Positions 923 to 43,621 of a DNA stretch of 64,000 nucleotides are shown here, piece by piece; positions within the stretch are counted from its first letter, which is position 1, and every line of letters starts with the position of its first letter. The notes under the pieces were generated by a model. The model had not been told where the DNA came from and did no database searches. It saw only the letters and a list, made by a program, of their open reading frames with translations. The DNA comes from Escherichia phage vB_EcoM_KAW3E185, in the sequence record MK373782.1; one strand, written 5' to 3'. The translations under genes and the position numbers were made by a program.

Positions 923-1148
923 CTCGGTCCCATGATTTGGCCATTAATCCGGACATAAATTCTTCAATGCGCGTTTCTTTAGATGGACTTTCACTATTAG
1001 AGACCGCAAGTTTGTAATCTGCAATAGGACAGAACATATCAAGGTCCATATTAAGGTCGTCTTTGATTTTTTCTTCTGACACATCTTTATCGTATGTGTA
1101 CAGATAACTATCACATGATTCTGATTTAATGTAAATTGCTATACTCAT
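912..1148 (-). CDS. Hypothetical small protein (start 1148 or 1163)
   Basis: ORF track 912..1163; internal ATG (MSIAIY) has AGGAAT Shine-Dalgarno. Confidence 0.5.
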   Translation of the reverse strand: MSIAIYIKSESCDSYLYTYDKDVSEEKIKDDLNMDLDMFCPIADYKLAVSNSESPSKETRIEEFMSGLMAKSWDRDDE

Positions 1149-1624
1149 CTCAAATTCCTGCATTCGGTAATAAAACGTTCAACTTCATTATTCTTGGCTT
1201 TTATCTTGTCTTTATGTTCTTGTAAACTACTTTTAATAAGATTAATAATGATAGCGACAGTGCCGCCGCCAATGATGCCACCAATAATACTTACGATAGT
1301 AGATGCTAATAAGATAGCAATAATATCAACAAAACCGAAAGAACTCACCTTAGTACTAAAAAACCATACCGATGGTACAAATATAATCCATCCTGCTATC
1401 CATTGGCACTTATTGAAAAACTTTTCAAGATCAGCTTGAGTTGTTCGTATTACTTCATCGATAGGTTGATAACCGTTAATGTATCTGTTCACGATAATAC
1501 CTGCTGGCTGGTCGATTTTAAATTCTTGGCAAATACGTTTAACTAAGTAGGATGGACATCCTGTCCAATCTACTGAATAGTATGAAATACCTTTATTGCC
1601 GTCGTCTATATTATTGTTAATCAT
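1145..1624 (-). CDS. Membrane protein with C-terminal FITECR tail (family A)
   Basis: 159 aa; long hydrophobic segments; ends ERFITECRNLR; GGAAGG Shine-Dalgarno. Confidence 0.65.
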   Translation of the reverse strand: MINNNIDDGNKGISYYSVDWTGCPSYLVKRICQEFKIDQPAGIIVNRYINGYQPIDEVIRTTQADLEKFFNKCQWIAGWIIFVPSVWFFSTKVSSFGFVDIIAILLASTIVSIIGGIIGGGTVAIIINLIKSSLQEHKDKIKAKNNEVERFITECRNLR

Positions 1625-2310
1625 TACCAGCCTTCCATAGGGAATTCCAGATAAACTTGAGCGTTGACACGAATTTCATTGGTAATCTTTTTAACTCGGT
1701 CTGTATTACGAGATACACGTCCGAACCAACGCCATCCATTACTAATTGCACGAGAACCAGTGTGCCATGTTTGCCAATCAAACTGAAGAAGAGTACGGTC
1801 TGGAGCTTCCCATTTCTCTAGTTCACCTTTTTCAATTTTTTCGAGGACTTCTTTGTGCCACTGGCGATAGATAAGTTCGCCATCAGGAATCTGACTGAAC
1901 TCTGCAGTTCCTGTTGCAAAATGAGTAGGACACACATCAGCGTTAACAAGACCAAGAATATGTTCAGAATGGTAACGAGGGTTGTCATAGTCAGGTTGTC
2001 CTGCAGTAATAAAGTGTTGACCAACTGGAATATCAGGGCGAGGAACATCGTCATGGTGGTATCCAGGGATAGCAGGATACCACCCAGGCATCAGCATATG
2101 AACCCGAGAATCAAATACAACATGTTGATTAGTCCAATCAATTGGGAGATTGGCAATAAAGCTACGAGTGATTGAGCCACCATTATCCCAAGCAAAACCC
2201 AAATCACAATTAAAGAACATTGGTTCATTTTTGATTCGGTCATTTTGTACGTTATGTGCAAAACTACCAACTGCACGAGCTTGACTATTAAAAGTTTTAG
2301 AACTATTCAT
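1624..2310 (-). CDS. Hypothetical 228-aa protein, His-rich (possible metal-dependent enzyme)
   Basis: ORF with GAGGAAAA Shine-Dalgarno; motif PGYHHDD and several conserved-looking His/Asp; no TM segments. Confidence 0.6.
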   Translation of the reverse strand: MNSSKTFNSQARAVGSFAHNVQNDRIKNEPMFFNCDLGFAWDNGGSITRSFIANLPIDWTNQHVVFDSRVHMLMPGWYPAIPGYHHDDVPRPDIPVGQHFITAGQPDYDNPRYHSEHILGLVNADVCPTHFATGTAEFSQIPDGELIYRQWHKEVLEKIEKGELEKWEAPDRTLLQFDWQTWHTGSRAISNGWRWFGRVSRNTDRVKKITNEIRVNAQVYLEFPMEGW

Positions 2311-2311
2311 A

Positions 2312-2617
2312 TTATTTTCCTCGACATTCTTTAATGAAATTTTCTAGATTGGTAGATTCAATAGCTTTTTTACGAGCTTCTGCGTGTTCTTCTTCAGACA
2401 ATTTACATTTATAATTGACCCAGACGTTATGGTCGAAACTAGTCGTGGCATATAATAACAATGCTCCAACGAATAGCAAAAACGGCGATAAGAATACAAA
2501 ACCAGGAACACCATCCATACTGTAAGCCTTTTGTAATACTGCAACAGAAAGAGCTGCGTAAAAAAGTGATACAAATATTGTTAAAAGACCAATTCGGTTG
2601 GTTTCGCCTAATTTCAT
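2312..2617 (-). CDS. Two-TM membrane protein with C-terminal ENFIKECR tail (family A)
   Basis: 101 aa; two hydrophobic helices; ends LENFIKECRGK; GAGGAG Shine-Dalgarno. Confidence 0.7.
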   Translation of the reverse strand: MKLGETNRIGLLTIFVSLFYAALSVAVLQKAYSMDGVPGFVFLSPFLLFVGALLLYATTSFDHNVWVNYKCKLSEEEHAEARKKAIESTNLENFIKECRGK

Positions 2618-2626
2618 AATATTCTC

Positions 2627-2668
2627 CTCATGTTTTAATAGGACTACTATAACATAGTCCTATCAGTT
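2627..2668 (-). promoter_or_regulatory. Early promoter with stem-loop (PeSL-like cassette)
   Basis: Minus strand has a -35-like TGTACAAA, 17 bp spacer, TTATAGT -10, inside inverted repeat ATAGGACTA...TAGTCCTAT; approximate coordinates. Confidence 0.5.
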
Positions 2669-2675
2669 TGTACAC

Positions 2676-2876
2676 TTATTTTGACATTTCTTCGATGTCA
2701 CGACGATACCCATCACGAACTTCACGAAGAGCTTCAAGGCCACACATAGGCTCGATACCAGTAATGTGAACTTGATTAATCTGATACTCTACATCTTCTA
2801 ACTGAGCGAAAACATAACGACGTTCTGCTGCACAACCAGGTTTAGCTTTACCGAAACGTTTATTCAAAGTAGTCAT
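2676..2876 (-). CDS. Hypothetical small protein (66 aa from internal ATG)
   Basis: ORF track 2676..2894 begins at a GTG; internal ATG MTTLNKRF has GGAGAT Shine-Dalgarno. Confidence 0.5.
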   Translation of the reverse strand: MTTLNKRFGKAKPGCAAERRYVFAQLEDVEYQINQVHITGIEPMCGLEALREVRDGYRRDIEEMSK

Positions 2877-2902
2877 TTTTATATCTCCATTCACTCATTT
2901 GT

Positions 2903-2947
2903 TTTGATAGGTCTATAGTATCAACAACTACAGACCTTGTAAACTGT
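2903..2947 (-). promoter_or_regulatory. Early promoter with stem-loop (PeSL-like)
   Basis: GTTTACA, 17 bp, TACTAT on minus strand; inverted repeat AGGTCTGTAG...CTATAGACCT spans the -10. Confidence 0.55.
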
Positions 2948-2956
2948 TTTGTGAAA

Positions 2957-3913
2957 TTATTTGAAAGGTTTTACCATATGAAAGTTTTGTTTGAAACGCT
3001 TGACGTAATCGTCGTGTCCTAAGCTTTGGTACATACTTACTACTTTGCTATAATTTTCCCAAGCGAACTCACGGAACCATCCTGATGTGATTGATGTACA
3101 GACCTTTTCAAGGGCCATCATAAAACTATCACGTGGATGGATTTCAAAGTTATTAGGAATCTGAGAACGTTCTAACGCTAGTACACATGATTCTTCGTAT
3201 ACGCCGGCCAATTTGACCATTTCTGGTAATGATTCGAACTTCTCGCGTGAGGTCATGACTTCAGAACCATCTTTCATATAAAATGTATACGCTGGACGGT
3301 CTGTTAGTGCAATGGCTTCGTGAATAGTATCATGATCGTATGTGTAGATGTCATCTTTAAAGAATGCGCTTTTAGAAGTGTCAAGAACCGGGTGAGCATA
3401 ATTCAAAGTTTCTTTCTGGCGTTTCAGCATAATTTCAGTAAGTTCATCGTTCAGTGTAACACCTTTACCACGAAGATACTGAATATGGTTCATAGTCTTT
3501 AAAAAGAATGGATTATTTTTCTTGAAACGATGAGACATCTTAATTGCAAGACATATCTCAGGAGTTGCCCAGTAAAACCCGTTCAAACGGTCTTTAGTCA
3601 AATTTTTCTTGGCGTATTTTAAAAGGTCATAAGAAGACGTGAAATCTTCAGGAGTGAGTTCACCGACTAATTCACGGACATTAGTGATTGCCGGAACAAT
3701 ATATGCTTCAAAATGAGTTTCGCGTCCATTATGGAAGCATTTGAAAACTTGGACATCAGGGTTATCTTGGTGAACATATACACCCATCATTTGATTTTTG
3801 AATGCATTCCAAGAACCTTGGTCCGCAATAAAGTCCCAATCACTATTTTTAATAGCGCTAGAATCAATAAGACCGTGATAGTGAAGTGCACGAGAACCAA
3901 TAACTAACATCAT
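2957..3913 (-). CDS. Hypothetical 318-aa protein with possible nucleotidyltransferase-fold motif
   Basis: N-terminal hhhGS-x17-DWDF resembles the GS...DxD signature of Pol-beta-type nucleotidyltransferases; GAGGAAAA Shine-Dalgarno; assignment is speculative. Confidence 0.6.
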   Translation of the reverse strand: MMLVIGSRALHYHGLIDSSAIKNSDWDFIADQGSWNAFKNQMMGVYVHQDNPDVQVFKCFHNGRETHFEAYIVPAITNVRELVGELTPEDFTSSYDLLKYAKKNLTKDRLNGFYWATPEICLAIKMSHRFKKNNPFFLKTMNHIQYLRGKGVTLNDELTEIMLKRQKETLNYAHPVLDTSKSAFFKDDIYTYDHDTIHEAIALTDRPAYTFYMKDGSEVMTSREKFESLPEMVKLAGVYEESCVLALERSQIPNNFEIHPRDSFMMALEKVCTSITSGWFREFAWENYSKVVSMYQSLGHDDYVKRFKQNFHMVKPFK

Positions 3914-3941
3914 AATATTTTCCTCGGATTAATTCATTAAC

Positions 3942-4193
3942 TTAAATTTCACGACATGCGATATTATATTCATCCCAGAGGTCATCATGTGAAGCCTCTA
4001 CCAATGGAACGATTGTACCGTTTATGTCTTCATTATAAGGGCAAATTGTACAGTGCGCATCTTCGAATCGGATGCCTTTGTGTTCAGATTTTTTATAACG
4101 CATATCGAATATCTTTGCAAACTTTTCACGAGTAATGGTTTTAGCAACCACTTTAGTTCCGATACTTTCGTAATAAATCATTGTGGACTCCAT
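3942..4193 (-). CDS. Hypothetical small protein (C-terminus NIACREI, weak family A resemblance)
   Basis: 83 aa; preceded by a PeSL cassette. Confidence 0.55.
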   Translation of the reverse strand: MESTMIYYESIGTKVVAKTITREKFAKIFDMRYKKSEHKGIRFEDAHCTICPYNEDINGTIVPLVEASHDDLWDEYNIACREI

Positions 4194-5768: not shown

Positions 5769-6339
5769 ATTCTCTACATTCCATAATAAATTGCTCAAGG
5801 ATTAAATTGTTAGTGAAATTAGGACTAACAACCATGGTTTCATAAAGCGCATCAATAGCACTTAAAGCATCAACTCTTTTAAGCAAAGGCTTGCCTTCAT
5901 ACATAGTTTCAGAATCGACGATTAACGTAAAGTAATATTTTTTATTATCGACTAGAACTTCTGTATCGATATAAAACATATTAGACCTCAGAAGCTTATC
6001 TCTAAAACCATAATAATCTTCTGAACGTTCACTGATATATTCCCATTCAGTGTTTAAACAACAAACAGACCATGTAGGAGCAACGAAATCAGTGAATCTA
6101 ATATCATGGTCTGCAACTAGTTTAGCAATAGCTCCGATATCATGAATCATAATACCTGGGGCTAATAAAGATTTTCTGCTATGGCTAGCCGTTTTCTCAG
6201 TAGTCTCATAAGAAGACGACCAGTACCATTTACGTCCGGTTGCAACATATCGTAATGAATCAACTAAAGACGTAGGTGGATTTACCTTATCTCGGAACTC
6301 TTCGAACATTGAGTCAATATCATTATTTTGGTTTCGCAT
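5737..6339 (-). CDS. Hypothetical 200-aa soluble protein with C-terminal EQFIMECRE motif (family A)
   Basis: ORF track 5737..6360 begins at a TTG; internal ATG MRNQNN has AAAGGAG Shine-Dalgarno. Confidence 0.6.
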   Translation of the reverse strand: MRNQNNDIDSMFEEFRDKVNPPTSLVDSLRYVATGRKWYWSSSYETTEKTASHSRKSLLAPGIMIHDIGAIAKLVADHDIRFTDFVAPTWSVCCLNTEWEYISERSEDYYGFRDKLLRSNMFYIDTEVLVDNKKYYFTLIVDSETMYEGKPLLKRVDALSAIDALYETMVVSPNFTNNLILEQFIMECREYVKANPIHTK

Positions 6340-7988: not shown

Positions 7989-8453
7989 TTATTTAATTTG
8001 TTTAGCAGACCAGATACGGTCTTTAATAAGTTTTTGGATATCTTCAACATACTCAAGGCTATGAGCGTGAGGATTATCTTTGAAACTACGTGCTCGTGCC
8101 AGTTTCTGGCCTTCTGTTTTGATTACTAAAAGCTCTTTAAGAATTGCTTCATACTTAGAAATAATTCCTTTAACGATATTTTTTTCTTGAGCTGTTTTAG
8201 GGTCAGTTTTTGGCGCAGGTGCTTTACCTGTAGCTTTCTGGAACAATTCACCTGATGCAGCTAGGCTTTTAAAAACTCGGCTAACAGTATTAGCATTAGT
8301 AAAACCTTCGGCTTTAAAATCTCTAATAAAACGGAAACGTTCTTCATCGGAGGCGTCTTTGTAAGAATATTTACCTGCTTGAATTGCTGCAATCGCAGCG
8401 GCTTTTACATCTGAACTAGATTGTTCAGTCAAAAATTCAGCGTATGATTTCAT
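7989..8453 (-). CDS. Internal-protein-like (IP) gene with capsid targeting sequence
   Basis: N-terminus MKSYAEFLTE matches the T4 IP targeting sequence MKTYQEFIAE with an L-x-E prohead-protease site; 154 aa. Confidence 0.7.
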   Translation of the reverse strand: MKSYAEFLTEQSSSDVKAAAIAAIQAGKYSYKDASDEERFRFIRDFKAEGFTNANTVSRVFKSLAASGELFQKATGKAPAPKTDPKTAQEKNIVKGIISKYEAILKELLVIKTEGQKLARARSFKDNPHAHSLEYVEDIQKLIKDRIWSAKQIK

Positions 8454-9431: not shown

Positions 9432-9947
9432 TTAAAGCAAATCAATCATTTTAACAGTTGGCAAAACGATTTCTTCTTCAATATAAGCAAATTCAACACA
9501 TTCAACTACACACAAGAAATCATAATCATAATATTCAGAAGCATGTCCAAGAATACCAACGAGACCTTCTGATACTAAATATCCATTCTCACAGAACAGG
9601 TCGAATACACGCGATTCGTCTTCTTCAGATTTATTACCAAGGTCGACTTCAATATCAAAGACCTTTTTAATGAATTCTGGATAAAGATGGTCTGAGAACA
9701 GTCCTTCAACCAGATATTCGTAGATAATAAGCGAGCAATCACTGAATGGTGTATTACCACAGTAACGTTCAGCTTTAGTGCTAGAATGACGACTCTTAAA
9801 TTTCTTCAAGAGATATTTAAACTGTTGGAGCTCATGCTCTTCTACACCAAATAATGTTTTGGTTTTATAGTTGTCGCCGTCATTTTCCGAAGTAGTGACA
9901 TCAATTACGTAACCTTTAGGGATTGTACTGCCTAAACAAATATTCAT
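9432..9947 (-). CDS. Hypothetical protein
   Basis: 171 aa; GGTGA Shine-Dalgarno. Confidence 0.55.
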   Translation of the reverse strand: MNICLGSTIPKGYVIDVTTSENDGDNYKTKTLFGVEEHELQQFKYLLKKFKSRHSSTKAERYCGNTPFSDCSLIIYEYLVEGLFSDHLYPEFIKKVFDIEVDLGNKSEEDESRVFDLFCENGYLVSEGLVGILGHASEYYDYDFLCVVECVEFAYIEEEIVLPTVKMIDLL

Positions 9948-10602: not shown

Positions 10603-10809
10603 TTACTCACCTTTTGCAATTTTATCCATAACGATAGCGATTAAGCCGATTAGAAATGCTACTACCAATGAGATAGAATTTTCTGTTGTTGTCAGTAGTC
10701 CACAAATGAATCCTACAAACATCGAAAAACTAAAAGCCATTGAAGCAATTACTACAGCAACATTACGAATCAGTTCAGCGCGTTTCATTTTATTTCTCCA
10801 TTTACTCAT
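10603..10809 (-). CDS. Small two-TM membrane protein
   Basis: 68 aa; two hydrophobic segments; PeSL cassette upstream. Confidence 0.55.
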   Translation of the reverse strand: MSKWRNKMKRAELIRNVAVVIASMAFSFSMFVGFICGLLTTTENSISLVVAFLIGLIAIVMDKIAKGE

Positions 10810-10857
10810 TTGTTTTGATAGGACTACTATATCATATCCCTATAGGCTTGTATACCT

Positions 10858-11121
10858 TTATTTCAAATATATTGCGTATTTTTTATAGCCACCAGGCTCG
10901 TGTCGAAGACCTTTATCATTTGCAAAACGTTGAATGTTATTGAACTGATTTTCATCAAGTTCAGACGTGTCAAATATGAAAAAGTTTCGTTTGTTACCAA
11001 GCGTGATATGCGGAGTTAAGTCAATGTTATACAAATTAAGAATATCAACAATAACCTGATTGACCGCTTTGTTAATTTTCACACCAGACGATTCTGAGAT
11101 GAATTCGTTGAAAGTTTTCAT
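10858..11121 (-). CDS. Internal-protein-like (IP) gene with capsid targeting sequence
   Basis: MKTFNEFISE at internal ATG (ORF track starts 4 codons earlier, at 11133); L/I-x-E cleavage motif. Confidence 0.65.
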   Translation of the reverse strand: MKTFNEFISESSGVKINKAVNQVIVDILNLYNIDLTPHITLGNKRNFFIFDTSELDENQFNNIQRFANDKGLRHEPGGYKKYAIYLK

Positions 11122-11135
11122 TTTAGGTTCCATTT

Positions 11136-11186
11136 GGTTGTTTTGATAGGACTACTATAACATAGTCCTATCAGCATGTAAACTAC
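11136..11186 (-). promoter_or_regulatory. Early promoter with stem-loop (PeSL-like)
   Basis: GTTTACA, 17 bp, TTATAGT with inverted repeat ATAGGACTA/TAGTCCTAT. Confidence 0.55.
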
Positions 11187-11474
11187 TTACAGAAGAGTTT
11201 TTGCAATAATTTTAAGCTGAGCTACAGAAATATGCTTAGCTTTAAACAGTGCAGTCTCTTCAGCCGGAGAGATAACAATAGTAGCGCCATCTTTCTTAGC
11301 AGACCATCCATCCCCTAAGTAAACAGTACCTTTTACTTCTTCACCATCAACCAGACTAATCATTGGTTTACCCTCACGTCCTTTATTTGTTTTAATAACT
11401 TCAGAAGTAAGGGATGCTTCGGTCAGAGTAGAAACGTTAGCAACAGGTGATATAAATTCTTTATAGGTTTTCAT
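11187..11474 (-). CDS. Internal-protein-like (IP) gene with capsid targeting sequence
   Basis: N-terminus MKTYKEFIS; 95 aa; AAGGAAATAAA Shine-Dalgarno. Confidence 0.7.
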   Translation of the reverse strand: MKTYKEFISPVANVSTLTEASLTSEVIKTNKGREGKPMISLVDGEEVKGTVYLGDGWSAKKDGATIVISPAEETALFKAKHISVAQLKIIAKTLL

Positions 11475-11477
11475 TTT

Positions 11478-11548
11478 ATTTCCTTGAGGTTGTTTATTTG
11501 ATAGGATGATAGTAACACACCATCATCCTTATGTAAACTGTTTTGTGA
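11478..11548 (-). promoter_or_regulatory. Early promoter with stem-loop (PeSL-like)
   Basis: GTTTACA, 17 bp, TACTAT; spacer inverted repeat AGGATGAT...ATCATCCT. Confidence 0.55.
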
Positions 11549-11551
11549 AAA

Positions 11552-12237
<686 letters not shown>

Positions 12238-12241
12238 TTTA

Positions 12242-12976
12242 TTACCTTAAGATTGTTTCAATTTTAGAATAAAGCTCTTCTAAAGAGCCGTCGTTTGTAA
12301 TAACTAAATCGCCTTCTTCAATAGGCAACCCAGCTTCTGTAATATGTTTATCGGTGGATTCCGTACCAGAGCGAACCACATGAATAACTGTAGCACCCAT
12401 CGCTCTAGCGGTTTCCATTTCATGGACTTGGCGTGTATCGGTCACAACATAGTAATCGAAATCACTTCCAATATAATCCGTATAGTTTAATGCAAAAAGT
12501 TTAACCCAATACATACGGTCAAATAAATTAACGACAACATCCGTACCGAGGGCTTGCATAAGACGGCGGATTGACCATGTGTCGTTGATATTATTTATAG
12601 CTTCACGCAGGGCTTCATATGGTTTAATATCTAGATACGAATATCCACCTTCTAACGATGATAATACTTTAACATTATTAATCGGTAAATATTGACTTTG
12701 CAAATAAATTAGCGCTTCTTCCAATAATTCAATAACATCCAACTTATTGAGATTTAATGGTGTTTCACGGTCGTATCCAATGCCTTCAAAGTATTCGTAT
12801 TTCAACTCTGTGAATACATCAGGATTTTCAGCATGCCTACGTCCCCAGGCTATTGCTAGAGCGTCTTTAATTGGATATGCTAATTGGTATTTTACGGATT
12901 TAAAGTTTGAATTGATGTAATCAGCAGTGGTGTCTTTACCACTACGTTTGATGCCACTTAAAAAGATTAGCTCCAT
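12242..12976 (-). CDS. 1: gp1 deoxynucleoside monophosphate kinase
   Basis: 244 aa; P-loop SGIKRSGKDT; T4 order. Confidence 0.85.
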   Translation of the reverse strand: MELIFLSGIKRSGKDTTADYINSNFKSVKYQLAYPIKDALAIAWGRRHAENPDVFTELKYEYFEGIGYDRETPLNLNKLDVIELLEEALIYLQSQYLPINNVKVLSSLEGGYSYLDIKPYEALREAINNINDTWSIRRLMQALGTDVVVNLFDRMYWVKLFALNYTDYIGSDFDYYVVTDTRQVHEMETARAMGATVIHVVRSGTESTDKHITEAGLPIEEGDLVITNDGSLEELYSKIETILR

Positions 12977-38309: not shown

Positions 38310-39881
38310 ATGAAATTTAATATCTTAAGTTTGTTTGCTCCATGGGCAAAAATGGACGAACGTGATTACAAAGACCAAGAAAAAGAAAATTTAGAATCGA
38401 TCACCACACCAAAATTAGACGACGGTGCGAAAGAATACGAAGTATCTGAAAATGAAGCACAGCAAACATATAATGCTATGTTTCAGAGAATGTTCGGTAG
38501 CCAAGAACCAGGGCTCAAATCAACGCGTGAATTAATCGATACGTATCGAAATTTGATGACGAACTATGAAGTGGATAATGCAGTCTCTGAAATAGTTTCC
38601 GATGCTATCGTATATGAAGATGATACAGAAGTCGTTTCTATAAATTTAGACAACACAAAATTTAGTCCAAATATCAAATCAATGATGTTGGATGAATTTA
38701 ACGAAGTGTTAAATCATTTATCTTTCCAACGTAAAGGTTCAGACCATTTTAGACGTTGGTACGTAGATTCTCGAATTTTCTTCCATAAAATTATTGACCC
38801 TAAACGCCCTAAAGAAGGTATTAAAGAGCTTCGTCGTTTAGACCCACGTCAAGTTCAATATGTCCGTGAAGTTATTACAACCACTGAAGCCGGTGTTAAA
38901 ATAGTCAAGGGTTATAAAGAATATTTCATTTATGACACATCACACGAATCTTATGCTTGTGATGGTCGCATATATGAAGCTGGCACAAAAATAAAAATCC
39001 CTAAAGCCGCGATTGTTTATGCCCATTCTGGTTTAGTTGATTGTTGTGGTAAAAATATCATCGGTTATTTGCATCGGGCTATTAAGCCGGCGAACCAATT
39101 AAAACTTCTTGAAGATGCCGTCGTAATTTATCGTATTACTCGTGCTCCCGATCGTCGTGTATGGTACGTTGATACAGGTAATATGCCTTCAAGAAAAGCA
39201 GCAGAACATATGCAACATGTTATGAATACGATGAAAAACCGTATTGCATATGATGCTACTACAGGCAAGATTAAAAACCAGCAGCATATTATGTCGATGA
39301 CCGAAGATTATTGGTTACAACGACGTGATGGTAAAGCAGTAACAGAAGTTGATACATTACCGGGTGCAGATAATACCGGAAATATGGAAGATGTACGTTG
39401 GTTCCGTAATGCGCTTTATATGGCTTTACGTATTCCTATTACCCGTATTCCAAGCGACCAAGGTGGTATACAGTTTGATGCTGGTACTTCTATTACACGA
39501 GATGAATTGTCATTTGGTAAATTTATTCGTGAGCTGCAACATAAATTTGAAGAGATATTCCTAGACCCGCTTAAAACTAATTTAATTCTTAAAGGAATTA
39601 TTACAGAAGATGAGTGGAATGATGAAATAAATAATATTAAGATAAAATTTCATCGGGACAGTTATTTCTCGGAATTAAAGGATGCTGAGATTCTGGAGCG
39701 TCGTATTAATATGCTTCAGATGGCCGAACCATTTATTGGTAAATATATTTCTCACAGAACAGCTATGAAAGATATTCTTCAGATGTCTGACGAGGAAATT
39801 GAACAAGAGGCTAAGCAAATTGAAGAAGAGTCGAAAGAGGCTCGTTTCCAAGACCCCGACCAAGAACAAGAGGATTTTTAA
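38310..39881 (+). CDS. 20: gp20 portal vertex protein
   Basis: 523 aa; T4 order. Confidence 0.95.
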
Positions 39882-40117
39882 TGGACGATTTAATTCAAGC
39901 TATTAAATCAAACGACCTCGTTGCTACTCGAAAGTTTTTTGAAAGTGCAATGGCAGAAAAAGCGGTTCGTTTGATTGAAGCGCGTAAAGCAGAAATCGCT
40001 TCTCAATTTTTGATTGAAGGCGAAGAACCTGAAGAAGAAAAGAAAGCTAAAGCTTCGGAAGACGACGCTGATGAAGGCGATGACGACGAAGACGAAGATG
40101 ATGAGGACGATGAATAA
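39881..40117 (+). CDS. 67: gp67 prohead core protein
   Basis: 78 aa; acidic C-terminus; T4 order. Confidence 0.85.
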
Positions 40118-40542
40118 TGTATCTTATCCCTGAATCTTATGAATTGGTACTCGAAAATGTCGAAGCACTTATTCCTGAAGCACAGGGCCGAATCGATGCA
40201 TTGTCTTCTGCTCTCGATATTGACGATATAAATACTATTATCGAGAACATGCTTGAAACTGAAACGGATTTAGCTGTTGCAATGGCTTCCATTATTAATG
40301 AAGAACAGTTAAATGAGTTTATCGTTAAACATGTTTCTTCTCGTGGTGAAGTCACCCGCACTAAAGACCGTAAAACTCGTGAACGTAACGCGTTCCAAAC
40401 CACTGGTCTTTCTAAAGCAAAACGTAGACAAATCGCTCGTAAGGTCGTTAAAGCTAAAAAAGCTAACCCTTCAGGCCAAGTTAAAGGCTTGCGTAAGCGT
40501 AAAAAGGCTCTTAAACGTCGTAAAGCATTAGGATTAAGCTAA
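40117..40542 (+). CDS. 68: gp68 prohead core protein
   Basis: 141 aa; T4 order. Confidence 0.85.
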
Positions 40543-41189
40543 TGAATAAACCCGAGTTACTTATTGAAACTTGGGGTCAACCCGGTGAGATTATTGATGG
40601 CGTTCCAATGTTGGAATCTCATGATGGAAAAGATTCTGGCTTAAAACCAGGGCTTTATATAGAAGGTATTTTTCTTCAGGCAGAGGTTGTTAACCGAAAT
40701 AAACGTTTATATCCTAAACGCGTTTTGGAAAAAGCAGTAAGTGACTATATTAAAGAACAAGTCGCAACCAAACAAGCCCTTGGAGAATTAAACCATCCAC
40801 CTCGTGCAAATGTTGACCCTATGCAAGCCGCTATCATTATTGAAGATATGTGGTGGAAAGGAAACGATGTATATGGACGTGCTAGAATTATTGAAGGCGA
40901 CCATGGTCCCGGCGATAAATTAGCTGCTAATATACGAGCTGGTTGGATTCCAGGTGTTTCCTCTCGTGGTCTTGGTTCTTTAACCGACACCAATAAAGGG
41001 TACCGTATCGTGAACGAAGGATTTAAATTAACCGTCGGCGTAGATGCCGTATGGGGACCTTCTGCTCCAGATGCTTGGGTTACTCCTAAACAAATATCAG
41101 AATCAGAATCAGAAAATTCGGTGGAAATCACCAAAAACAGTGCTGACGAAGCATTTAAAGCTCTCGCAGAGAGTTTAAAAGCATTATAA
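40542..41189 (+). CDS. 21: gp21 prohead core protease
   Basis: 215 aa; T4 order. Confidence 0.9.
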   Translation: MNKPELLIETWGQPGEIIDGVPMLESHDGKDSGLKPGLYIEGIFLQAEVVNRNKRLYPKRVLEKAVSDYIKEQVATKQALGELNHPPRANVDPMQAAIIIEDMWWKGNDVYGRARIIEGDHGPGDKLAANIRAGWIPGVSSRGLGSLTDTNKGYRIVNEGFKLTVGVDAVWGPSAPDAWVTPKQISESESENSVEITKNSADEAFKALAESLKAL

Positions 41190-41222: not shown

Positions 41223-42035
41223 ATGATCAAAGAACAACTTTTGAAAGAAGCTCAGAACATCGAGACTTCAGTTGCTCTTAATAGTGTTTTCGAATCAGTA
41301 GAACTGTCTCCGGACGTTAAAGCTAATTTCAGCACTGTATTCGAAGCCACCGTTAAGCAGGAAGCAGTCAAACTGGCTGAATCTCATATCAAAGCCATCG
41401 CCGAAAAGGCTGAAGAAGAAGTTGAAAAGGCCAAAGAAGATGCTGAAGAGAAAGCTGATAAAAAATTGGCTGAACAAGCTTCTAAATTCCTAGACCATCT
41501 TGCAAAAGAATGGCTCGCAGAAAACCAAATCGCAGTTGATAAAGGCATTAAAGCTGATTTGTTCGAATCCATGCTTGGTGGTCTGAAAGAACTGTTTGTT
41601 GAACATAACGTTGTTGTTCCAGAAGAATCTGTAGATGTTGTAGCAGAAATGGAAGAAGAGCTGGCCGAACATAAAGAAGAAACCGCTCGTTTGTTCGAAG
41701 AAGTTACCAAACGTGATGCATATATCAATTACGTTCAGCGTGAAACCGCTATTAATGAAAGCGTAAAAGACCTGACTGAATCTCAGAAAGAAAAAGTTAT
41801 TGGCCTGGTTGAAGGTATGGATTATTCTGACGCATTTGGTACTAAGTTAACTGCTATTGTAGAAATGGTTAAAGGTTCTACTAAAGAAGAAGCCGCTATT
41901 ACCGAAAGTATAAATACAGTTGACAATGACGCTGCCGGTCTTAATTTTGTTGCCGAAGCAGTTGACACTACCACAACTCAGGTAGAACAGAATTCTAATG
42001 TAAGTTTATATGCGAAAGTCGCATCTCGTTTCTAA
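41223..42035 (+). CDS. 22: gp22 prohead scaffold
   Basis: 270 aa; E/K-rich coiled coil; T4 order. Confidence 0.9.
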   Translation: MIKEQLLKEAQNIETSVALNSVFESVELSPDVKANFSTVFEATVKQEAVKLAESHIKAIAEKAEEEVEKAKEDAEEKADKKLAEQASKFLDHLAKEWLAENQIAVDKGIKADLFESMLGGLKELFVEHNVVVPEESVDVVAEMEEELAEHKEETARLFEEVTKRDAYINYVQRETAINESVKDLTESQKEKVIGLVEGMDYSDAFGTKLTAIVEMVKGSTKEEAAITESINTVDNDAAGLNFVAEAVDTTTTQVEQNSNVSLYAKVASRF

Positions 42036-42052: not shown

Positions 42053-43621
42053 ATGACTACTATCAAAACTAAAGCTCAGCTCGTAGACAAATGGAAAGAA
42101 CTGCTGGAAGGTGAAGGCCTGCCGGAAATCGCTAATAGCAAGCAGGCTATTATCGCTAAAATCTTCGAAAACCAGGAAAAAGATTTCGAAGTATCCCCTG
42201 AATATAAAGACGAGAAAATCGCTCAGGCATTTGGTTCTTTCTTGACCGAAGCTGAAATTGGTGGTGACCACGGTTATAATGCTCAGAACATCGCAGCAGG
42301 TCAAACCTCTGGTGCAGTAACCCAAATTGGGCCGGCAGTTATGGGTATGGTTCGTCGTGCTATTCCTAATCTGATCGCTTTTGATATTTGTGGTGTTCAG
42401 CCTATGAACAGCCCGACCGGTCAGGTATTTGCTCTCCGTGCAGTATATGGTAAAGACCCTATCGCTGCTGGCGCTAAAGAAGCTTTCCATCCGATGTATG
42501 CTCCAGATGCGATGTTCTCTGGTCAGGGTGCTGCTAAGAAATTCCCAGCTCTGGCTGCTGACACTACTACTGTTGTAGGTGATATCTATACTCACTTCTT
42601 CCAAGAAACTGGTACCGTATATCTGCAAGCTTCTGCTATCGTAACACTTGATTCTAGTGCAACTGATGCAGCTAAATTAGATGCAGAAGTTAAGAAACAA
42701 ATGGAAGCTGGTGCACTGGTAGAAATCGCTGAAGGTATGGCTACTTCTATCGCTGAACTCCAGGAAGGTTTCAACGGTTCTACCGATAACCCATGGAATG
42801 AAATGGGCTTCCGTATCGATAAACAAGTTATCGAAGCTAAATCTCGCCAGCTGAAAGCTGCTTACTCTATCGAATTAGCACAAGACCTCCGTGCAGTACA
42901 CGGTATGGATGCTGATGCTGAACTGAGCGGTATTCTGGCTACAGAAATTATGCTAGAAATCAACCGTGAAGTTGTTGATTGGATTAACTACTCTGCACAG
43001 GTTGGTAAATCTGGTATGACCCTGACTCCGGGTTCTAAAGCTGGTGTATTTGACTTCCAGGACCCGATTGATATCCGTGGTGCTCGTTGGGCCGGTGAAA
43101 GCTTTAAATCTCTGTTGTTCCAGATTGATAAAGAAGCAGTTGAAATTGCTCGTCAAACCGGTCGTGGTGAAGGTAACTTCATTATCGCTTCCCGTAACGT
43201 AGTTAACGTACTGGCTTCAGTTGATACTGGTATTTCTTACGCTGCACAGGGTCTGGCTTCTGGTTTTAATACCGACACTACTAAGTCTGTATTTGCCGGT
43301 GTACTTGGTGGTAAATACCGCGTATACATCGACCAGTATGCTAAACAGGATTACTTCACCGTTGGTTACAAAGGCGCTAACGAAATGGATGCAGGTATTT
43401 ACTATGCTCCTTACGTTGCACTTACCCCACTGCGTGGTTCCGATCCTAAGAACTTCCAGCCGGTAATGGGCTTTAAAACTCGTTACGGTATCGGTGTTAA
43501 CCCGTTTGCTGAAAGTTCCCTGCAGGCTCCAGGCGCTCGCATCCAGTCCGGTATGCCGTCTATCCTGAACAGCCTTGGTAAGAACGCTTACTTTAGACGC
43601 GTCTACGTTAAAGGAATTTAA
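42053..43621 (+). CDS. 23: gp23 major capsid protein
   Basis: 522 aa; T4 order. Confidence 0.97.
   Translation: MTTIKTKAQLVDKWKELLEGEGLPEIANSKQAIIAKIFENQEKDFEVSPEYKDEKIAQAFGSFLTEAEIGGDHGYNAQNIAAGQTSGAVTQIGPAVMGMVRRAIPNLIAFDICGVQPMNSPTGQVFALRAVYGKDPIAAGAKEAFHPMYAPDAMFSGQGAAKKFPALAADTTTVVGDIYTHFFQETGTVYLQASAIVTLDSSATDAAKLDAEVKKQMEAGALVEIAEGMATSIAELQEGFNGSTDNPWNEMGFRIDKQVIEAKSRQLKAAYSIELAQDLRAVHGMDADAELSGILATEIMLEINREVVDWINYSAQVGKSGMTLTPGSKAGVFDFQDPIDIRGARWAGESFKSLLFQIDKEAVEIARQTGRGEGNFIIASRNVVNVLASVDTGISYAAQGLASGFNTDTTKSVFAGVLGGKYRVYIDQYAKQDYFTVGYKGANEMDAGIYYAPYVALTPLRGSDPKNFQPVMGFKTRYGIGVNPFAESSLQAPGARIQSGMPSILNSLGKNAYFRRVYVKGI

Follow-up and report, generated by a model that had tools for sequence, protein, structure and literature searches.

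The internal proteins of T4 and other T-even phages are the closest described counterparts of the genes analyzed here. Each of T4 Ip1, Ip2 and Ip3 inhibits a GmrSD variant of its own, and none protects against the variant of another (Silas 2025, PMC12373910). Ip2 inhibits GmrSD-ECOR21 and Ip3 inhibits GmrSD-ECOR17 (PMC12373910). The authors of that study proposed GmrSD variants as the targets of every gene in both ip loci, and ip4-10 gave no reproducible interaction with further GmrSD variants (PMC12373910). It is established that the ip loci supply inhibitors of type IV restriction with a narrow spectrum. The specificity of mature IPI (IPI*) for GmrSD is very narrow, a 90% identical enzyme being immune (PMC3012670). 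The decisive residues in the capsid targeting sequence (CTS) of IPIII are an aromatic residue at position 4 and Phe7 for targeting, and Ile8 and Glu10 for processing (PMC9026906, a review from the Black laboratory). Promoter-early stem-loop (PeSL) cassettes have also been described (Arbiol 2010, PMC2839356; Comeau 2014, PMC4122927). The T4/PST consensus of these elements is TTTACW-N17-TAYWAT with a stem of the form AGNA..TCNT (Comeau 2014, PMC4122927).

The window is a stretch of 64,000 nt from Escherichia phage vB_EcoM_KAW3E185 (MK373782.1), a T4-like coliphage of the Tevenvirinae. Two additional IP-like genes beside 57B were proposed in the initial annotation. Both are real genes with a CTS, but ORF B (11187..11474, minus strand) is ipI itself and ORF A (10858..11121, minus strand) belongs to the known Ip9 family. 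Their coordinates and strand were as first given, and both lie directly downstream of 57B. The order on the minus strand is gene 1 (dNMP kinase), 57A, 57B, ORF B, ORF A, homologues of trna.4, trna.3 and trna.2, and tRNA genes. The upstream neighbor 57B (11552..12007, minus strand) encodes the Acb1 anti-CBASS phosphodiesterase (Pfam PF23474 Acb1, 197 bits). The trna.4 homologue (10603..10809, minus strand) encodes a small membrane protein (phrog_1692, E=2e-32; T4 and JS09 annotation) and marks the downstream end of the ip slot, a border that is conserved. With 1.8 kb around the locus as query, 291 phage records matched, the best at 97-98% identity. These best matches included Shigella phage JK45 along with several isolates of Mosigvirus and Tequatrovirus. 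The possibility that both ORFs are chance reading frames can be dismissed, as it is refuted by the strong family matches and by hundreds of homologues in conserved gene order. The region is very probably the ipI-side internal-protein locus of a Tevenvirinae coliphage, with ORF B as ipI, ORF A as an extra Ip9 cassette and both products predicted to be injected. Acb1, IPI and Ip9 adjoin one another and form a contiguous cluster of anti-defense and candidate anti-defense genes. Between trna.2 and the tRNA genes is a 171-aa ORF (9432..9947, minus strand; phrog_2290, unknown function). No counterpart exists at that position in T4, and the ORF is a further accessory insertion in this hyperplastic region.

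ORF B encodes a 95-aa precursor and matched Pfam PF11634 IPI_T4, described as a nuclease inhibitor from bacteriophage T4, with 165.5 bits against a cutoff of 25. Residues 20-95 align to chain residues 1-76 of PDB 2JUB, the NMR structure of mature IPI* (E=7e-41). Compared to T4 IPI (NC_000866), 82 of 95 residues are identical (86%), including 70 of 76 in the mature part. The protein falls in phrog_4363 (internal virion protein), and its gene follows 57B directly, as ipI does in T4. ORF B was therefore assigned as the orthologue of T4 IPI. An ipI-type match was found in 291 phage records. Identity was at least 95% in 108 of these, while 145 fell in the 80-90% band which includes T4 (86%). ORF B is the RB69/Mosigvirus-type ipI allele. 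The propeptide or CTS covers codons 1-19 (11418..11474, minus strand), with predicted gp21 cleavage after L-T-E. The processing site is conserved, reading MKTYKEFISPVANVSTLTE/ASLTSE in the window and MKTFKEFTSTTTPVSTITE/ATLTSE in T4, where the slash marks the cut. The immediate context is STLTE/ASLTSE in the window and STITE/ATLTSE in T4, with a 19-residue propeptide and then Ala as mature residue 1. The mature IPI* from ORF B has 76 aa.

By analogy with T4, the ORF B product would be built into the prohead core via its N-terminal propeptide, cut by gp21 after Leu-Thr-Glu19 and then stored in the head. Mature IPI* would be injected with the DNA and would block a type IV restriction enzyme of the GmrSD type, which cuts DNA containing glucosyl-hmC. 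T4 IPI had been brought in at first as an analogy for both proteins. This stands for the class of injected anti-restriction proteins, but for ORF B the analogy is its identity, since it is the ipI orthologue. The suggestion that the ORF B body is aimed at other defense systems does not hold, as the target expected of an orthologue is CT596-type GmrSD, which it should inhibit after injection (PMC3012670, PMC9026906). A phage with this ipI should resist CT596-type GmrSD. Because IPI* is so narrowly specific for GmrSD, its target could be shifted in ORF B by the six substitutions of the mature part.

The regular expression MK[TS][YFW]x[ED][FLI][ILV] was run on the six-frame translation of the window to locate CTS motifs. 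Three matches were found, each at the start of a minus-strand ORF. The mean was 0.013 matches in 300 mononucleotide shuffles, none of which contained two or more. The claim that both proteins begin with the T4 capsid targeting sequence is borne out by these matches at the starts of ORF A and ORF B. The ORF A CTS is MKTFNEFISE (codons 1-10, 11092..11121, minus strand), with predicted cleavage after I-S-E and Ser as the next residue. It keeps F4, F7, I8 and E10, which are all of the IPIII determinant positions.

Genes for a T4-type prohead core and the gp21 protease are encoded within the window, as identified by Pfam. All are on the plus strand. The prohead protease gp21, which is expected to remove the CTS, is at 40542..41189 (Peptidase_S77, 357 bits). 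Portal gp20 is at 38310..39881 (Portal_T4), gp67 at 39881..40117 (GP67), scaffold gp22 at 41223..42035 (T4_CASP) and gp23 at 42053..43621 (Gp23). A 141-aa ORF at 40117..40542 occupies the gp68 position; it was assigned by gene order alone and gave no Pfam match. The third CTS-like ORF (7989..8453, minus strand) starts with MKSYAEFLTE followed by Q. It encodes 154 aa, and the mature protein would be basic with a pI of 9.7. It belongs to phrog_2280 (unknown function) and gave no Pfam match. It was found in 511 phage records and is annotated as a hypothetical protein in 25 of the 25 matches listed. This ORF may encode an un-named internal protein.

ORF A matched phrog_7673 (internal head protein) with E=2.6e-48. 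Over its full length it is 67-73% identical to Ip9 of phages RB15 (UniRef Q38376), RB32, RB33, VR5 and VR7. For RB15, RB32 and RB33 the figure is 70-71%, with the alignment covering 100% of the length. Ip9 of the T-even phages was reportedly first described by Repoila et al. in 1994. A literature search for the name Ip9 returned unrelated uses of the term only. Of 194 phage records with an Ip9-like gene, 26 carry the ORF A allele (96.6-98.9% identity), and several GenBank records annotate the ORF A-type gene as an internal head protein. In phages ESh27, TH58, mogra and AV115 the allele is at least 97% identical. A Pfam search with ORF A gave no match, and comparison to PDB sequences gave noise only (Rtt106, E about 0.07). 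On sequence comparison ORF A is a diverged allele of the already named Ip9 family. The mechanical ORF extends to an in-frame upstream ATG at 11133 (MEPK-) which has no ribosome-binding site. The homologues and the GenBank annotations start at MKT, and the ATG at 11121 (MKTF...) is the predicted functional start. Cleavage after Glu10 would leave a mature protein of 77 residues (8.9 kDa, pI 9.0).

Ip9 alleles show strict conservation of the CTS, next to a linker that is variable. Twenty-one positions of the ORF A body are invariant across the myophage and siphophage rows of the alignment. An AlphaFold2 model of ORF A, built from a 23-sequence alignment, had a mean pLDDT of 88, with the body above 90 and an alpha-beta-beta-alpha-beta-beta arrangement. 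The predicted model had no fold similarity to IPI*. The basic 77-residue body would form an autonomous alpha/beta domain. The 10-residue CTS would give it the same route as IPI, namely entry into the core, cleavage after Glu10 and injection. Residues 55-57 of ORF A are L-D-E (10951..10959, minus strand), at the start of a helix spanning residues 57-69, where RB-type Ip9 has L-D-Q. The internal L-D-E could be a second gp21 cleavage site.

Directly upstream of ORF A and ORF B only early-type promoters were found, and a pattern search detected no late-promoter box directly upstream of either. Late synthesis of both would then come from read-through. The nearest T4 late-promoter box on the coding strand, TATAAATA, is located inside gene 1 (12592..12599, minus strand; pattern search), and no further TATAAATA was present on that strand between this box and ORF A. 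Late read-through of 57A-57B-ipI-ip9 may start from this box. ORF A could instead be expressed early only, from its own PeSL promoter, and never packaged, which would make its CTS a relic. The strong sigma-70-type early promoter directly upstream and the lack of a late box nearby would fit such a gene. However, T4 ipI has the same promoter layout as ipI of the window and its product is packaged. The strict conservation of the CTS beside a varying linker and the box in gene 1 on the same strand also count against early-only expression, which is highly improbable.

ORF A is flanked by two PeSL elements on the minus strand. The upstream element (11138..11183) has the promoter TTTACA-17-TATAGT (11182..11154) and a perfect 11-bp stem (11144-11154 with 11163-11173). 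The promoter scan scored it at 10 of 12 with a TG. The downstream element (10810..10855), which is upstream of the trna.4 homologue, has the promoter TATACA-17-TATAGT (10854..10826). In both promoters TG precedes the -10 hexamer TATAGT, and each promoter overlaps its stem-loop. The two elements are 46-nt direct repeats, 85% identical and 328 nt apart. Each is one base off the consensus, and the mismatch of the upstream element is in the -10 hexamer. A more diverged PeSL is located upstream of ipI (11497..11540, minus strand; TTTACA-17-TACTAT at 11537..11509; stem 11503-11513 with 11519-11529). In T4, equivalent elements are present upstream of ipI and of trna.4.

Alignment showed one PeSL, without any gene, between ipI and trna.4 in JS09 and T4. 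JS09 lacks exactly the ORF A cassette, and the indel by which the window differs from JS09 and T4 has the same length as the repeat spacing (328 nt). In the window and in phage mogra the order is PeSL, ORF A, PeSL. Mogra carries Ip7 in place of the IPI of the window, along with the same ORF A. JK45 was considered as the nearest relative to share this ORF A and was rejected, as alignment revealed a different CTS protein in the slot. The PeSL-bounded slot occupied by ORF A in the window holds in JK45 an unrelated 87-aa CTS protein, which begins MKTYKEFIAE followed by SQSSTLSENYESF (2859..3122 of locus L002). On both sides of the slot, JK45 and the window have about 97% identity. The statement that IP loci are hypervariable is confirmed here, the slot being empty (JS09, T4), filled by ORF A (window, mogra) or filled by another CTS protein (JK45). 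The ORF A cassette would be gained, lost or swapped via recombination between the flanking PeSLs, and the mechanism of this slot polymorphism is the already published PeSL mechanism. A gene annotated as ip7 protein in phage OLB35 (779..1012 of locus L010; record marked UNVERIFIED) is a chimera. It joins a 5'-truncated Ip7 to the last 33 codons of an ORF A-type ip9, starts with GTG and has no CTS. The cassette has apparently decayed or recombined.

The Ip9 body was also found outside the T-even phages. In tblastn searches, 72-aa stand-alone homologues of the body without a CTS (57% identity) were detected in Guernseyvirinae/Kagunavirus siphophages. The Kagunavirus homologue heads a series of small ORFs that are divergent from the replication genes. 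One Seuratvirus has an unannotated ORF of 73 aa with 46% identity to the Ip9 body. The stand-alone homologues without a CTS from Kagunavirus/Guernseyvirinae, Seuratvirus and metagenomic siphophages are located at 3004..3222 (L003), 2507..2725 (L007), about 2486..2707 (L005) and 6001..6240 (L012). In Ackermannviridae an Ip9-like domain makes up the C-terminal 75 or so residues of a protein of 654-755 aa. Its identity is 30-34%, and it independently matched phrog_7673 (E=2e-8). When 1.84 billion representatives were searched exhaustively with a profile, only 26 family members were returned. One of these, the LysM-repeat protein P0050, was regarded as spurious. Some of the 26 have CTS-like N-termini (MKFNEFLTE, MKSFKEYLTE, MKSFKEFVTE, MKTFQEFLNE, MKSFKQYLTE). 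Others have no CTS; their genes are on roughly 40-kb siphophage contigs, surrounded by small ORFs and close to genes for primase and helicase.

Three adjacent genes with CTS-like N-termini are present in Salmonella phage pertopsoe, a Kuttervirus (967..4126 of locus L004), and also in Yersinia phage CAU_YEP3 (L006). In pertopsoe, gp086 starts with MAIPSFLNFLEE and encodes 755 aa with the Ip9-like domain at the C-terminus. Gp087 starts with MKPFIEYFKE and is annotated as a structural protein, and gp088 starts with MKGFKDFLTE and encodes 79 aa. These three genes are a probable Ackermannviridae internal-protein locus.

A further possibility is that ORF A only fills the head or condenses DNA there, as a basic protein that does nothing once the cell is infected. 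In favor of this are its small size and basic character (pI 9.0). T4 internal proteins, moreover, number about 360 per head and can be dispensed with on laboratory strains (PMC9026906). However, the siphophages that encode homologues without a CTS have no T4-type core. In those phages the homologues lie in small-ORF accessory clusters beside replication genes, which argues for an intracellular function and against a role in packaging only. By its position, this small-ORF region would be an early or accessory region. The body of ORF A, with its 21 invariant positions, is also predicted to be a compact, well-conserved folded domain, and the view of Ip2 and Ip3 as filler was overturned in 2025 (PMC12373910). 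A filler role is improbable. Most likely ORF A, too, inhibits with high specificity a host nuclease or defense that acts on incoming phage DNA. This anti-defense hypothesis is reasonable and has already been published for the whole ip locus and partly tested (PMC12373910). As an orphan Ip, ORF A is a reasonable candidate for the next inhibitor and target pair, though that hypothesis is already in print.

The injected ORF A product may have a target other than GmrSD or type IV restriction, such as a different and more widespread enterobacterial defense or a host function. This is proposed because the domain is used by phages without glucosyl-hmC DNA, with body homologues in Kagunavirus/Guernseyvirinae, Seuratvirus and Ackermannviridae. 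The negative published screen of ip4-10 against GmrSD agrees with it. However, that screen covered only eight active GmrSD systems, and the Ip9 allele used in it probably has about 70% identity to ORF A. All three characterized T-even Ips act on GmrSD variants. Other DNA modifications are likewise attacked by GmrSD/DUF262 enzymes, and the DNA of Seuratvirus and Ackermannviridae is hypermodified, which also counts against this view. A target outside GmrSD is possible but doubtful.

The pattern of homologues suggests a cytoplasmic early accessory domain that was captured by a CTS. A tentative reading, somewhat doubtful as yet, is that the Ip9 body is a portable anti-defense domain, free-standing in some small siphophages, fused to a 10-residue CTS in T-even phages and, in Ackermannviridae, a C-terminal module of a protein of 650-860 aa which has a CTS-like N-terminus and is encoded beside two further CTS-like genes. 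If this were true, its target would be a widespread enterobacterial defense not tied to glucosyl-hmC, and CTS capture would turn a cytoplasmic early inhibitor into a pre-loaded, injected one. Homologues that lack the CTS or are fused to larger proteins make the Ip9 domain screenable as a plain cytoplasmic protein, and the hosts of Kagunavirus, Seuratvirus and Kuttervirus widen the places in which to seek its target. The observation of the Ip9 body outside T-even phages may be new. The practical value of the analysis is a correction of annotation, ORF B to ipI and ORF A to an Ip9 allele. Its residual value is in the orphan status of Ip9 and its homologues beyond the T-even phages.

Compared to T4 IPI, ORF B is alike in length (95 aa), in its location after 57B, in propeptide type and in the x-T-E/A cleavage context. 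It differs at 7 of the 19 propeptide residues and by six conservative substitutions in the mature part (T2S, A10T, I28V, A65V, H67Q, N74T). ORF A resembles Ip9 of RB15, RB32 and RB33 in CTS type, size class, locus and membership of phrog_7673. It differs from them in having a linker after the CTS that is three residues shorter and about 30% sequence divergence, and from RB-type Ip9 in having LDE rather than LDQ at residues 55-57. Its CTS differs from the IPII/IPIII sequence MKTYQEFIAE at 3 of 10 positions, all of them outside the determinant residues or conservative at them. ORF A probably shares with T4 Ip2 and Ip3 the logic of CTS-directed packaging and injection, but its body has no sequence similarity to theirs. 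The cassette has the -35 and -10 hexamers, the 17-nt spacing and the overlapping AGGA..TCCT-type stem of known PeSLs. As in those, its elements flank a variable small ORF and the indel falls exactly at the repeats. There is no substantive difference between the window cassette and the published PeSLs, of which it is another instance.
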